A DNA stretch of 64,000 nucleotides from a plasmid: the sequence record NZ_CP010801.1; one strand, given 5' to 3'. Positions 25,254-32,319 of this stretch are shown here, piece after piece (positions within the stretch are counted from its first letter, which is position 1; each line of letters opens with the position of its first letter). The notes under the pieces are model-generated. The model was given only the letters and a program-made list of their open reading frames with translations, had not been told where the DNA came from and searched no databases. A program made the position numbers and the translations under genes.

Positions 25254-25868
25254 TCAGGCCCGGGCTGCCACCAGTGTCCCTGCGCCGATCAGCGTCAGGC
25301 CTCCCACGCGCTGGACGTTCGCCTGCGCTCGGGCACTGGTCAGCCGCGTCGCCAGCGATCGCGCCAGCAGCGCATAGATGGCGGCATTGGCCGCCGCCAT
25401 GATCACGAAGGTCGGGATCAGAATGCCGGCCTGAGGCAGGAACGAACGGCTGGCATCAATAAACTGGGGAGCGAACGCAACGAAGAAGACGATGCTCTTC
25501 GGATTCAGCGCCGTTACCAGCCACGCCTTGCCGAAGCGCTGTAACGGACGGCCCTCGCTCACCGGTACCTGGCTTGCGCCGCTTCGCGCGGCGCTCCGCA
25601 GCGCCTGGACGCCAAGATAGATCAGATAGGCGGCGCCGGCCCACTTCAATGCGGTGAACAGTGTGGCGGAGGTCGCCAGGACCGCGCCCAACCCGGCCAT
25701 TGACAGGGTAAAGGCCGTGAGATCGCCCGCGGCAACACCCGCCACGGTGGCGAACGCCGACTTGCCGCGGTGGGCCAAGGCATCGCCGATCACCAGCAGG
25801 ATCGTCGGTCCTGGAATCGCCAGTATCACGACACTGGTCAGCACAAACGCAATCCAATGTTCGAACGA
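25254..25868 (-). CDS. LysE/RhtB-family amino-acid exporter
   Basis: 204 aa, six hydrophobic segments; start at MSFEHWIAFVL. Confidence 0.7.
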   Translation of the reverse strand, partial: SFEHWIAFVLTSVVILAIPGPTILLVIGDALAHRGKSAFATVAGVAAGDLTAFTLSMAGLGAVLATSATLFTALKWAGAAYLIYLGVQALRSAARSGASQVPVSEGRPLQRFGKAWLVTALNPKSIVFFVAFAPQFIDASRSFLPQAGILIPTFVIMAAANAAIYALLARSLATRLTSARAQANVQRVGGLTLIGAGTLVAARA

Positions 25869-26118
25869 CATCAAAGTCTCCCGTTGTTTCGGAACTGCGG
25901 CGAAAGCAGCGTCGCGCCAGCTTGGCGCACCGTGCGCGGCAGTCATGGTATCGGATTTCGGTCCCAACGGTCAGAGAAGACCCGAAGGCCCCTGCGCCCT
26001 GTGCCGGTGGCGAGCCTGACAAGTCGGTCTGGGGCTCACCACTGGCATGCATCCTGCGTTTGTCAGCCGCTCCGACGCGCATTGACGCACGTCGGCACGA
26101 TAACAACGAGGGGACGAT

Positions 26119-27453
26119 ATGGAGCTGCGTGGGAGCGCGAACTGGAGGAAACCACGGGCCCGTGGCCGGCTGTGGTGGCATCACGCCGTACTGTGCGTCG
26201 GTGGCACCCTGGTCGGCGGTGTCGCCACGCTATATGCCTGGCTGATCGACATCGGCCACCAGCTGTTTCTCGCGGCAAGCGCCCACGGGCCGTGGGTCAC
26301 CTTGCTGCTTTCGCCAGCACTGGGCGCACTCGCAGTCTGGCTCACACACCGCTATTTCGACGGTGCCGAAGGCAGTGGCATTCCACAGATCGTGGCCATC
26401 GTCAGCGGCGGCAATGGAACGGCTAAGCCGCGTCTGCTGCGGCCGGCGGTGATCGTCGGCAAGATCGGCCTGTCCTTTCTCGGCACGCTGGGCGGCTTCA
26501 CGCTCGGCCGCCAGGGCCCCACCGTCCATATCGGCGCCGCGCTGCTCGTCAGCCTCCGCCGGTGGCTCCCCGGGCTGTCCGGTCCAGCCGGCGCCCATCT
26601 CACCGCGCTCGATCGCCAGCTTGCCCTTGCCGGCGCGTCGGCCGGATTGTCGGCAGCGTTCTGCACGCCGCTGGCCGGCATTGCCTTCGCCATCGAGGAA
26701 CTGGCGCGCGGCATCCCGCCGCGCGGCAGCGCGGCGTTGATCGCGGTGGTGGTCTGTGCCGGCACCGTGGCGGGCGTGCTGCAAGGCGAGGGTCCGGCGC
26801 TCGGCATGATAGCGGCCGGCCCGTCGGCACCGTACCGCATGGCTGTCGCGGTCGTGACAGCGGGCGCGGTGGCCGGGCTGGCCGGCGCCGGCTTCTGTTG
26901 GCTGCTGGTTCACAGCGAGCGGTGGTTGCCGCCTCGGATACGCGGTCTGCGCGCGCAACGCCCTGCAATGTTCGGCGCGCTGTGCGGGCTGGGCGTTGCG
27001 CTCCTCGGGCTGGCGTCATCGGGAACCAGCCACGGCAGCGGGTACGGCGAAACGCGCGCGCTGCTGGCCGGCGACCTCGTGCTGCCGGCTGCGTATCCCT
27101 TCCTCAAGGGCCTGTCCTTGCTGCTGACCTGGCTGTCCGGCATTCCGGGCGGCCTGTTCGTGCCATCGCTGGCCATCGGCGCAGGGATCGGCAACCTGCT
27201 CCAATACACGATCGGGCAGGCACCTTTGCCGGTGTACGCGGCACTGGCGATGTGCGGCTATCTTGCCGCGGTGACGCAGCGCCCGGTCACGGCTTTCGTG
27301 GTGATGATCGAACTGGTGGGAGCGCGCGGCCTGACGATTCCGCTGATGGCTACCGCGTTGATCGCGGCCGGCGTATCGAGGATGGCGGTGCCGCCCTTGT
27401 ATGCAGCGCTGTCGGGGCGCTATGCGCCCGCGACAGCCACGGGCAGTATGTAA
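26119..27453 (+). CDS. ClC-family chloride/halide channel or H+/Cl- exchanger
   Basis: GSGIPQ selectivity motif (DGAEGSGIPQI) plus GREGP-like and GxFxP (GGLFVPS) motifs. Confidence 0.75.
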   Translation: MELRGSANWRKPRARGRLWWHHAVLCVGGTLVGGVATLYAWLIDIGHQLFLAASAHGPWVTLLLSPALGALAVWLTHRYFDGAEGSGIPQIVAIVSGGNGTAKPRLLRPAVIVGKIGLSFLGTLGGFTLGRQGPTVHIGAALLVSLRRWLPGLSGPAGAHLTALDRQLALAGASAGLSAAFCTPLAGIAFAIEELARGIPPRGSAALIAVVVCAGTVAGVLQGEGPALGMIAAGPSAPYRMAVAVVTAGAVAGLAGAGFCWLLVHSERWLPPRIRGLRAQRPAMFGALCGLGVALLGLASSGTSHGSGYGETRALLAGDLVLPAAYPFLKGLSLLLTWLSGIPGGLFVPSLAIGAGIGNLLQYTIGQAPLPVYAALAMCGYLAAVTQRPVTAFVVMIELVGARGLTIPLMATALIAAGVSRMAVPPLYAALSGRYAPATATGSM

Positions 27454-27539
27454 GAGGAAGTAGCGGGTGGCACGGCAGGCTGGATTGCCGCCGCCTCGCG
27501 CCCTCCCCGTCGGGAAGGGCGGAGGCCAGCGGCAGCCGC

Positions 27540-29889: not shown

Positions 29890-30278
29890 GACTGGCTCCT
29901 GGCGTGGGCCTCGGCTGCGGCGCGATCCGCGAGTTCCTCGAAGCGTCGGTTGGCGGTGTTCACATACACGGTGGCGACCAGCCAGCACAGGGCGTAGATC
30001 AGCAGGATCAGCACGTACCCCACGTTCAGCGGTCCAAGCACCTTCCAGCCCATCAGCTCCCGGCCGTAACCGGCGAGTAGGGTGACGGCAAGGATGAAGG
30101 CCAGACTGCCGCCAAGCAGCGGCACGACCAGGCGCCGCTTGGCGCCGATCAGTTCGCGGAAGCTGTGCGTGTATGCCGCACCGCGCCACGGCGGACCCGA
30201 CGCGATAGCCTCTGGGGTGCGAGTCGTTTGCGCGACGTGCGCGGCCGGACAGACCGCGTCCTCCGATAGTTCGATCAT
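29886..30278 (-). CDS. DUF485 (YjcH-like) small membrane protein
   Basis: Two TM segments; genetic coupling to actP. Confidence 0.6.
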   Translation of the reverse strand: MIELSEDAVCPAAHVAQTTRTPEAIASGPPWRGAAYTHSFRELIGAKRRLVVPLLGGSLAFILAVTLLAGYGRELMGWKVLGPLNVGYVLILLIYALCWLVATVYVNTANRRFEELADRAAAEAHARSQS

Positions 30279-30615
30279 GGTTGTCTCCTGGATTGCGCCC
30301 GTTCAGGCGGGCGTGATTTGTTGGCGCCGCACAGCCGGCAGACGCGGCGTCCTGGCGCCGACGTCCCTTGAGCAAGCGGCATGCCGACGTGCGAGCCACG
30401 GCGCCCCGGCGCTGCCAATGCCCACGCGCGATCGAATCGCGGCACGGCCGCACGCTGGGCGCGCATGCCGGCCCGGTAACGCGAACCGCTTTTGACGGCG
30501 CCTGATTCAGATATGAATCAGCGGCGGGCGGGCGTGGCGGCTTTCGAACCCGCAACGACGTGGTGTAAGCTCGCCGCACGGCCCGACGGACAAGTGGCCT
30601 GGGGAAAACAAGCCA

Positions 30616-32319
30616 ATGGTGGAGATACTGGAAGCGTTGCCGATCGGCCTGGTGTGGCTGCGCGGCGACGCCGTGGTGCTGCAGAACGCCGTCGCGCGCG
30701 ATGCCGTGGGCAGACATCACGGCGAGCCGGCGCGGACGGAGGGCGAGGGCGACGGCGACGGCGACGGCGACGGCGACGGCGACGGCGGCCGGCAGGATGC
30801 GATGTCCTGGAGCCGTCTGTTGTCCGCGCTTCGCGCGGACCCGGCCTCCGTGCCGGACACGGTCTCGCTGTCCGGGCGGACCTATGCGGTCGGCGTGCAT
30901 GCACAGGGCCAGTACACCCTCGTCATGCTGATGCCCCTTGACGGGCACGAGACCGTCTTTCCCGCGATAGACAAGCTACGCCAGCACTGTGGCGATCTGG
31001 AGGAGATCTTCCACCATTCCTTCGATGGCATCTTTGTCGCCGACGGCAATGGCGTCACCATGATGGTCAACGAGGGCTGCGAGCGGAACTACGATCTGCC
31101 GGCAGCAGACATGATTGGCCACCACGTCTCGGAGTTCGAGAAGAAGGGATGGATTCGGCCGGTGGTCGCCCAGCACGTTGCCCGAACCGGCCAGCGCATC
31201 ACCACCACGCAACATACGCACACCGGCAAGACCATCATGGTCACCGGCATGCCGCTATTCGACGGCGCGGGCAAGGTACGCAAAGTCGTGATCAATTCGC
31301 GCGACACCACCGAACTGGTGCAGTTGCAGGATGCACTGGCGCAGGCCAAGGCAGACCTGCGGCGCGTGGACGAGGAGATCGAAGCGCTGCGGACACAGAA
31401 CCTGAACGTCGATGGCCTGGTGATCCGCAGCGAGGCCATGCACCGGGTGGCATCGCTGGCCGTGCGCGTTGCCAAGGTCGATGCCACCGTCCTGATCACG
31501 GGCCCGTCGGGCGCAGGCAAGGACGTGATCACGCGCCTGATCCACCGCGAGAGTCCGCGCGCAGCGGGACCGCTCATCAAGATCAACTGCGGCGCGGTGC
31601 CGCGCGACCTGCTGGAATCGGAACTGTTCGGCTATGAAGCGGGCGCCTTCACCGGGGCGCAGCGGCAGGGCAAGTCGGGCCTCATCGAGCTGGCCAACCG
31701 CGGCACGCTGTTTCTCGACGAGATCGGCGACATGCCGCTGGACCTGCAGGTCAAGTTGCTGCAAGTGTTGCAGGACCGCGTGATATCGCGCCTCGGCTCG
31801 ACGCGTACCGTGCCGGTCGATGTGCGCGTCGTCGCGGCCACCAATCGCGACCTCGAAGCGATGGTCCGCGAGCGCACGTTTCGCGACGACCTGTTCTACC
31901 GCCTCAATGTGGTGCCGCTGCGCGTACCGCCGCTTGCCGAGCGCAAGGACGATATCGCGCCGATGGTGTTCCAGTTCCTGCGGGAATTCAACCAGCGCTA
32001 TGGCGTGAACCGCATCGTATCGGAGGAGGCAATGACATTGCTGCTGGCGTACGACTGGCCCGGCAACGTGCGCGAGCTGCGCAACGTGGTAGAGCGGCTG
32101 GTGGTGACCAGCCAGAGCGACCTTGTCGAGCCGGCGTTCCTCGACGGGGTGCTGCCGGCCGAGATCCTCGACGCCAGCACCTTTCGCCAGCGCGTCGACC
32201 GTTTCGAGCGCCGGCTCATCGAGGACGCGATGCGCAAGTACGGCAATACCCGGGAGGTCGCACGGGCGCTTGGCATCAGCCAGTCCAGCGTGGTGCGCAA
32301 GCTCAGGCGCGGCGACTGA
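30616..32319 (+). CDS. Sigma-54-dependent transcriptional activator with a PAS domain (DehR-like)
   Basis: AAA+ sigma-54 interaction domain ([23 protein letters not shown]), PAS-like N-terminus, C-terminal Fis-type HTH; stop lies 4 nt before the Tn501-like IR. Confidence 0.8.
30744..30785 (+). repeat. Hexanucleotide microsatellite (GACGGC)x7 encoding (DG)n inside the activator gene
   Basis: ggcgacggcgacggc... at 30741-30790. Confidence 0.8.

Follow-up and report, generated by a model that had tools for sequence, protein, structure and literature searches.

A mobile 2-haloacid utilisation module carrying a ClC-family transporter with glutamine at the gate, a probable proton-uncoupled exit for halide

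Introduction

Why would a gene cluster for the dehalogenation of 2-haloacids carry a ClC-family anion transporter in which the gating glutamate is replaced by glutamine? The question is raised by a plasmid (sequence record NZ_CP010801.1), from which we analysed one stretch of 64,000 nucleotides, hereafter the window. A preliminary description of this DNA, made from the sequence alone, had read positions 25254-32319 as a haloacid dehalogenation cassette captured as transposon cargo, in which the ClC protein removes the halide and the proton released by dehalogenation. To our knowledge, the roles of most prokaryotic ClC proteins are unclear.

The reading that we favour, with a probability of about 0.7, is that the region forms a self-contained module for the use of 2-haloacids, which spreads horizontally and has a proton-uncoupled ClC as halide exit. 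The catabolic core is of a known kind, and the exact sequence is already deposited on the Burkholderia cepacia plasmid pYS1. The new part is a group of ClC proteins with glutamine at the gate (Gln-type, as opposed to Glu-type) that occur recurrently beside haloacid dehalogenase genes; no description of this linkage, or of the sigma54-type promoters that accompany it, was found in the literature searched.

Results

A glutamine at the gate of the ClC protein

When the ClC protein of the window was aligned with HMMER to ClC structures (1kpl), its GRQGP motif fell on GREGP, and the gating glutamate (E148 of CLC-ec1) corresponded to Q132, encoded by CAG at 26512-26514. The protein is only about 25% identical to CLC-ec1 and retains GSGIP (S86), GGLFVP at residue 344 (the GxFxP motif), E194 as inner glutamate and Y428 as central tyrosine. 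On the ClcA equivalog model it scores 128.7 against a cut-off of 350, and it lacks the gating glutamate expected of that family. Identity as a fluoride transporter of the CLC-F type was considered and rejected, as GSGIP is intact and no CLC-F structure is found among the 52 PDB matches of the protein.

Glutamine at this position is rare among relatives. GREGP is carried by 118 of the 120 closest homologues, none of which is more than 53% identical. Of 150 representatives clustered at 50% identity, 111 have GREGP and seven have GRQGP; a search for GRQGP proteins with a 46-amino-acid fragment yielded one partial protein. By neighbour joining, the ClC of the window groups with the GRQGP proteins P0243 and P0246; a second Gln clade consists of P0272 and P0291, and P0293 and P0322 are isolated Gln cases. 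The inner glutamate is replaced as well in several of these relatives, by glutamine in P0243, P0246 and the ClC of contig L101 and by alanine in P0272. Neither the pore motifs GSGIP and GxFxP nor the central tyrosine varies within the Gln clades.

ClC exchangers move H+ in the direction opposite to Cl-, so that a ClC cannot remove halide and proton together, as had been proposed. In all ClC exchangers studied, moreover, H+ coupling requires a carboxylate at the gating position, where the protein in the window has glutamine. Accardi and Miller reportedly found in 2004 that CLC-ec1 E148Q does not pump H+. The E148Q protein, which served as a neutral-Gluex mutant in an assay of H+ pumping, carries Cl- downhill at ~300 per second, compared to 2200 per second for the wild type (PMC7253180). 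Since a coupled exchanger imports H+ and E148Q carries Cl- downhill, we propose the Gln-type ClC as an electrophoretic halide exit.

Linkage of Gln-type ClC genes to haloacid dehalogenase genes

The arrangement found in the window recurs in diverged form. On contig L101 (7.2 kb), the activator, the DUF485 protein, the symporter and the dehalogenase (P0122) are 66%, 54%, 90% and 76% identical to those of the window, and the dehalogenase gene is followed by a convergent ClC gene whose product is 48% identical and carries GRQGP. Contigs L098 and L103 combine a 74% identical dehalogenase with a convergent GRQGP-type ClC of 45-48% identity, and the gene for P0243 is convergent with that of a 228-amino-acid HAD protein (P0123) which is 74% identical to the dehalogenase of the window. 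In the second Gln clade, the P0272 gene adjoins genes for a glutaredoxin, a GrdB-like protein, a dehalogenase of the DehI family (PF10778; 53% identical to the DehI protein of pYS1) and DctM, while P0291 lies two genes away from a HAD-II-like hydrolase.

Glu-type ClC genes showed no such placement: none of 80 metagenomic relatives, 63 of them with 1 kb or more of DNA downstream, was near a haloacid dehalogenase gene, nor was any of five further Glu-type genes (three close homologues and two plasmid homologues). Counted by lineage, two of five Gln lineages and none of 66 Glu loci were linked (Fisher exact test, p = 0.004).

In addition, the three versions of the HAD-type cluster for which the upstream DNA was compared each have a -24/-12-type element, as recognised by sigma54, ahead of the ClC gene:

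Window: TGGCATgcatcCTGCG, 76 nt upstream of the ClC start
Contig L101: TGGCATgatatCTGCG, 55 nt upstream of the ClC start
Contig L098: TGGCACgggaaCTGCA, 55 nt upstream of the ClC start

Taken alone, the element in the window is weak, with a score of 8/11 and a chance of ~0.2; scores as high or higher were reached by only 5 of 55 upstream regions of Glu-type ClC genes.

Two sets of observations concern ClC or dehalogenase genes in other settings. The conserved metagenomic cluster around the second Gln clade (L105 1-4817; L191 1-9822) contains a GrdB-like fragment, a glutaredoxin and a protein of 293-296 amino acids without a Pfam match, together with either DehI and DctM or SelA/SelB, a thioredoxin-reductase-like protein and the HAD-II-like hydrolase; judged by its genes, it looks like an uncharacterised selenoprotein-linked haloacid pathway. 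In Collimonas and Trinickia, genes for CBS-domain ClC proteins (L014 3696-5450; L024 11799-13610) are separated by 1-2 kb from type II dehalogenase genes on the chromosome; these proteins keep a GAEGP gate and have GHGIP in place of GSGIP. For the three CBS-domain ClC proteins encoded near dehalogenase genes, loss of the gate glutamate, suggested by a GSGGP match to a regular expression, was rejected, as the HMMER alignment identified the gate as GAEGP.

Gene content of the module

The genes named in the preliminary description, namely a divergent activator and a DUF485-actP-deh operon with ClC and LysE-type genes alongside, were all recovered from open reading frames and profile searches at or near the positions it gave, as were the flanking tyrosine recombinase and transposon-type inverted repeat. 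The features are as follows:

23503-25224, plus strand: tyrosine recombinase with N-terminal DUF3701 (Pfam DUF3701 3e-25, Phage_integrase 4.7e-16)
25254-25871, minus strand: LysE/RhtB-family exporter, 205 amino acids (Pfam LysE 3.4e-29)
26043-26058, plus strand: candidate sigma54 -24/-12 promoter of the ClC gene, TGGCATgcatcCTGCG
26119-27453, plus strand: ClC-family anion transporter, 444 amino acids (Voltage_CLC E = 5.5e-68)
27540-28226, minus strand: L-2-haloacid dehalogenase, HAD type II, 228 amino acids (TIGR01428 226.8 bits)
28333-29889, minus strand: ActP/MctC-like sodium:solute symporter, 518 amino acids (sss superfamily model passed)
29886-30278, minus strand: DUF485 (YjcH-like) small membrane protein, 130 amino acids (Pfam PF04341 1.7e-16)
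30371-30386, minus strand: sigma54 -24/-12 promoter of DUF485-actP-deh, CGGCATgccgcTTGCT (GG-N10-GC)
30502-30521: palindrome CTGATTCAtatcTGAATCAG, ~125 nt upstream of the -24 element, a candidate site for binding of the activator
30616-32319, plus strand: activator with PAS, sigma54 AAA+ and HTH domains, 567 amino acids (Sigma54_activat, PF00158, 1.4e-68)
32324-32361, plus strand: Tn21-type 38-bp inverted repeat, 4 bp past the activator stop codon
34849-38052, minus strand: IS1071, complete, inserted in a Tn21-like tnpA, with 106-nt terminal inverted repeats

The dehalogenase belongs to the HAD-II group, as had been claimed, and not to the phosphatases. Its TIGR01428 score compares with an equivalog cut-off of 125.4, all phosphatase models score far below theirs, and its best solved relatives are L-DEX YL (1jud, E = 4e-89), 3um9, DhlB (1qq5, 1aq6) and DehIVa. 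All nine catalytic residues of L-DEX YL are present with the same numbering (D10, T14, R41, S118, K151, Y157, S175, N177 and D180) and are invariant across 32 relatives. The protein is about 65% identical to the characterised L-DEX YL and 54% identical to the product of the pUO1 dehalogenase gene, which we take to be DehH2. We place its start at 28226 because the protein aligns residue for residue with L-DEX YL and a Shine-Dalgarno-like GGGGA lies 7 nt upstream of that ATG. Activity on 2-haloacids is predicted from identities of 54-76% to relatives in the dehalogenase family.

The conservation of the operon was assessed by scanning with the dehalogenase alignment, with one genome per species, which yielded 80 loci to which the proteins of the cassette were mapped by tblastn. 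The activator is divergent from DUF485-ActP-Deh in 11 of the 80 (sources include Paraburkholderia, Rhizobacter, Variovorax, Hydrogenophaga, Herminiimonas, Polaromonas, Oxalicibacterium and Pseudomonas); one further locus has the activator and the dehalogenase only. The DUF485 gene lies directly upstream of actP and overlaps it by 4 bp (29886-29889), as in the translationally coupled pair of the ActP/YjcH type, and this pair is kept in all orthologous operons, in which the symporter is 69-82% identical to that of the window. A role for ClC as a general partner of the operon was rejected, with a ClC gene near only 3 of the 80 dehalogenase loci and none of the 11 orthologous operons.

The symporter misses the equivalog cut-offs of MctC (526/670), ActP (502/750) and TIGR02711 (430/1099) and passes the sss superfamily model (195/184), from which we conclude that it represents a related but distinct subfamily. 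ActP-type carriers move acetate and glycolate (PMC3552994); the ActP/MctC-like symporter of the module is the presumed carrier for haloacid uptake.

Downstream of the dehalogenase genes in the orthologous operons no recurrent exporter was found, with the exception of one HPP gene. A gene for an HPP-family membrane protein stands directly 3' of a dehalogenase gene in three places: on a Xanthobacter dioxanivorans plasmid (L092 7766-8143), on a plasmid of Variovorax sp. WS11 (L020 10747-11310) and at the second deh locus of pYS1 (L001 46861-47058). Between the Variovorax and pYS1 proteins, identity is 64%. As tblastn queries, the truncated Xanthobacter protein gave no match and the Variovorax protein matched the pYS1 copy only. 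HPP proteins may provide an alternative anion exit in dehalogenase clusters without ClC.

The activator contains Sigma54_activat, PAS_4, HTH_50 and HTH_8 domains and a GAFTGA loop at residue 343; it shares 58% identity with the activator encoded in the deh cluster of Xanthobacter dioxanivorans and 48% with a second pYS1 activator, encoded next to the DehI gene. The sigma54 promoter that the preliminary description had been unable to place in the spacer 30279-30615 (minus strand) was located at 30386-30371. CGGCATgccgcTTGCT keeps the GG and GC dinucleotides, ends 92 nt upstream of the DUF485 ATG, and has a chance of ~0.04 of being equalled in the 337-nt spacer. All 11 orthologous spacers contain a -24/-12 element scoring 9-10 of 11, at a variable distance of 41-165 nt upstream of the DUF485 start as estimated by tblastn. 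Since the element is kept in the orthologous spacers, the placement of the DUF485-actP-deh promoter is backed by comparison. Palindromes of the form TGAnTCA-spacer-TGAnTCA preceded the -24 element in ~8 of the 11 spacers and were positionally aligned in three (L029, L020 and L015); the palindrome at 30502-30521 is a candidate binding site of the activator.

The LysE-type exporter had been counted as part of the cassette, which the comparison did not bear out. It occurs near only 1 of the 80 dehalogenase loci and is not conserved in the diverged cluster on L101, where a CMD-family gene is found instead. All NCBIfam equivalog scores are below their cut-offs and the Pfam family model alone is passed; the open reading frame could be extended to 25967. 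LysE is probably a passenger and finds no comparative support as a component. Across the block, intrinsic terminators and sigma70 promoters were predicted no more often than in shuffled sequence, and a GC-rich hairpin between the ClC and deh genes was marginal only (z = -1.9).

Extent and mobility of the module

The segment from the integrase to the activator (23453-32323) forms a discrete haloacid module of 8,871 bp with identical ends in different contexts; we regard it as discrete because both junctions are base-identical while the flanks differ. Compared to the IncP plasmid pYS1 (NC_019369.1), the module is 99.92% identical, with one single-nucleotide difference and one 6-bp indel. The former changes residue 104 of the ClC, which is proline in the window and arginine in pYS1. 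The latter, the sole indel across the 8.9 kb, is a unit of the (GGCGAC)n tract at 30746-30787, which codes for a Gly-Asp repeat in the N-terminal part of the activator protein and is one unit longer in the window. An identical ClC protein, with the module, was found on eight further assembly or read-assembly contigs (L002-L010 series), and a partial ClC fragment also carries the label Pseudomonas aeruginosa.

The left end of the module (23453-23470) opens with GATAACTATTCTTATC, a short and imperfect palindrome that precedes the start of the integrase by 50 bp and may be a recombination site. The recombinase encoded at 23503-25224 may have a role in moving the module; it is 38% identical to the recombinase (13757-14950) of a nested Tn3-family transposon, which spans 10407-18597 and has 54-nt inverted repeats and a 999-amino-acid TnpA. 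Directly to the left of the module, the region 20683-23430 has a lower G+C content (52-57%) and encodes a truncated-looking DNA methylase, an IS30-like transposase (HTH_38 and rve) and a 343-amino-acid HAMP/MCP-signal protein; the same left context is found on contigs L003 and L006 and not in pYS1.

To the right, the module abuts a mercury transposon (32324-43762), whose outer end is the repeat at 32324-32361. Tn21-type repeats are located at 3174 (+), 32324 (+) and 43762 (-), and the outer pair (3174-3211 and 43725-43762) is flanked on both sides by TTTAA (3169-3173 and 43763-43767). These inverted repeats with identical 5-bp flanks, bounding an interval of 40.6 kb (3174-43762), are consistent with a putative composite transposon that was transposed as a unit, with the caveat that in Ralstonia sp. 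RRA.1 its two ends sit on different replicons. The description of the genes as transposon cargo therefore stands in part: the module lies inside the larger 40.6-kb repeat pair, but it abuts the adjacent mercury transposon from outside the repeat of that element.

The Tn21-like tnpA (32357-34783, minus strand) is cut to 808 amino acids by IS1071, so that no intact cognate transposase was found for the Tn21-type composite and its movement would need a transposase in trans. Contig L004 has the same right junction, followed by an intact tnpA-tnpR-urf2-mer array. The TnpA of IS1071 is 99.8% identical to that of the pUO1 copy, in line with the IS1071/Tn21 context suggested earlier; an arrangement of the TnHad1 type, with two IS1071 bracketing the dehalogenase gene, is not present, as there is a single copy 2.5 kb to the right of the module.

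The window as a whole is a mosaic with respect to Ralstonia sp. RRA.1. Positions 1-10406 are 100% identical to its 342-kb plasmid, on which genes for metal resistance (cnr/czc/chr) lie just upstream of the match. Positions 10407-49457 are 99.99% identical to its 1.98-Mb replicon, where homology begins exactly at the left repeat of the nested transposon of the Tn3 family, and the final 14.5 kb (49458-64000) matched no plasmid record. The mosaic points to recombination between copies of a transposon or to another host replicon.

Discussion

Taken together, these observations can be arranged into the following scheme. The PAS sigma54 activator would bind the TGATTCA-N4-TGAATCA palindrome, in response to a presumed inducer, and fire the -24/-12 promoter, two elements that are present and conserved. 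DUF485-actP-deh would then be transcribed, and the symporter pair, recognisable by family, would import chloroacetate, 2-chloropropionate or a similar acid, driven by the membrane potential or an ion gradient. Asp10 of the dehalogenase, whose catalytic residues are in place, would hydrolyse the carbon-halogen bond and release into the cytoplasm a 2-hydroxyacid together with a halide ion and a proton. By analogy to CLC-ec1 E148Q, the ClC with its glutamine gate, expressed from its own sigma54-type promoter, would conduct Cl- or Br- downhill without proton exchange, and the inside-negative membrane potential would expel the halide with no import of protons. The module would travel within a mosaic of Tn21-family and IS1071 elements.

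A wider proposal, which we rate at a little under even odds, is that a natural class of proton-uncoupled prokaryotic ClC proteins exists, with glutamine at the gate and often glutamine or alanine at the inner position. On at least two occasions, once with HAD-type and once with DehI-type enzymes, this class would have been recruited as a halide valve for dehalogenation, with a sigma54 promoter in the HAD-type clusters, and the window would hold its mobile, spreading form.

Several points weigh against a proton-uncoupled halide exit as a functional part of the module. The ClC of the window still has the inner glutamate (E194) that is replaced in its clade relatives, and E148Q is about 7-fold slower than the wild type, which means that better efflux is not self-evident. 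Three of the five Gln-type lineages (P0246, P0293 and P0322) have no dehalogenase gene in the DNA available; moreover, the linkage counts are small, and many contigs are short and of uneven length. As the 11 genome operons work without a nearby ClC, the transporter is an accessory and not a requirement. Finally, no TGAnTCA palindrome precedes the ClC elements of the three versions, so that we can only infer co-regulation by the activator of the module.

The alternative that survives best, although we consider it unlikely, is that ClC, like LysE, is a passenger acquired from a chromosome along with the integrase, has no functional tie to dehalogenation, and carries a glutamine that is neutral or degenerative. 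This would account for the 11 orthologous operons with neither ClC nor LysE within 10 kb and for the lack of a shared upstream activator site before the ClC gene, and it is the reading that we prefer for LysE specifically; the copies of the module itself are clonal (one single-nucleotide difference in 8.9 kb) and thus uninformative on selection. For ClC, however, it has to contend with clusters that have diverged to 45-48% ClC identity and still keep an intact, convergent Gln-type gene with a sigma54-type promoter, and with a second Gln clade that adjoins a dehalogenase of an unrelated family; no such placement is seen among about 85 Glu-type relatives. The invariance of GSGIP, GxFxP and the central tyrosine in the Gln clades likewise speaks against this alternative.

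It is much less probable that the protein is an ordinary coupled Cl-/H+ exchanger serving general chloride or acid homeostasis, in whose scaffold the glutamine is mechanistically silent. The retention of E194, the central serine and the central tyrosine would fit such an exchanger, but the downhill Cl- transport of CLC-ec1 E148Q, the need for a gate carboxylate in H+ coupling reportedly established by Accardi and Miller in 2004, and the loss of the inner glutamate as well in clade relatives all argue for uncoupled transport.

That the operon imports ordinary monocarboxylates (acetate, glycolate, lactate or propionate) alongside a HAD phosphatase or other hydrolase can be dismissed as highly improbable: ActP-type carriers do move such acids and the HAD superfamily consists mostly of phosphatases, but the TIGR01428 cut-off is exceeded almost two-fold with every phosphatase model far below its own, all nine dehalogenase-specific residues are present, and the closest solved structures are all L-2-haloacid dehalogenases.

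If the proposal of a proton-uncoupled halide exit holds, it would provide a physiological reason for a natural counterpart of E148Q, namely the electrophoretic expulsion of the product halide without a proton cost. The ClC of the module would then be the natural counterpart to the synthetic element, combining a pathway with a chloride exporter, that was favoured in laboratory evolution, and for bioremediation it suggests that a route for halide exit should travel with the dehalogenase. The module by itself would document only the spread of the pYS1-type arrangement among Burkholderia and Ralstonia.

Comparison with known systems

In Xanthobacter autotrophicus GJ10, van der Ploeg and Janssen reportedly described in 1995 a gene for a sigma54-dependent activator, dhlR, divergent from dhlC, a permease gene of the sodium:solute family, which is followed by the L-2-haloacid dehalogenase gene dhlB and has a -24/-12 promoter. 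On that description, the window has the same gene order and promoter type; it differs in the addition of ClC, LysE and an integrase and in being mobile. The same order is found on the plasmid of Xanthobacter dioxanivorans, where the activator, symporter and dehalogenase are 58%, 72% and about 50% identical to those of the window, but where the dehalogenase gene is followed by that of the HPP-family membrane protein and not by ClC.

Plasmid pYS1 contains the whole 8,871-bp module, annotated gene by gene, in different flanking DNA; our literature search found no paper on this plasmid. It also carries a second haloacid locus with a DehI-family (group I) dehalogenase, an HPP protein, another DUF485-actP pair and a sigma54 activator that is truncated among IS5 copies (L001 28393-30392, 42489-43871 and 45343-47060). 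Delftia acidovorans pUO1, with TnHad1 and TnHad2, shares with the window a type II dehalogenase on an IncP plasmid in association with IS1071 and Tn21-family elements. On pUO1, however, DehH2 lies between two copies of IS1071, whereas the window has one copy that does not flank the module, and no activator, permease or ClC is annotated around the dehalogenase gene in the 12 kb of pUO1 examined.

A pairing of ClC with dehalogenation, which the preliminary description had presented as not usually annotated, had already been demonstrated experimentally for chlorinated methanes in Methylobacterium (PMC4271186, PMC5585157). There, chloride efflux by ClcA limits growth on dichloromethane and over-expression of ClcA relieves the limitation (PMC4271186), while a plasmid-borne clcA2 is induced on chloromethane, and coupled Cl- export costs proton-motive force through the import of H+ (PMC5585157). 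The parallels to the module are a cytoplasmic load of chloride and protons, selection for or induction of ClC expression, a clc paralogue that accompanies the catabolic genes on a plasmid, and the benefit of a synthetic mobile element that joins pathway and exporter (PMC4271186, PMC5585157). The Methylobacterium proteins are described as H+/Cl- antiporters, whereas the window combines a glutamine gate and haloacid substrates with a linkage that is natural and recurrent. The closest match at the level of the gate is the laboratory mutant CLC-ec1 E148Q (PDB 1otu), which has the same change from GREGP to GRQGP at the aligned position; the protein encoded in the window carries it naturally.

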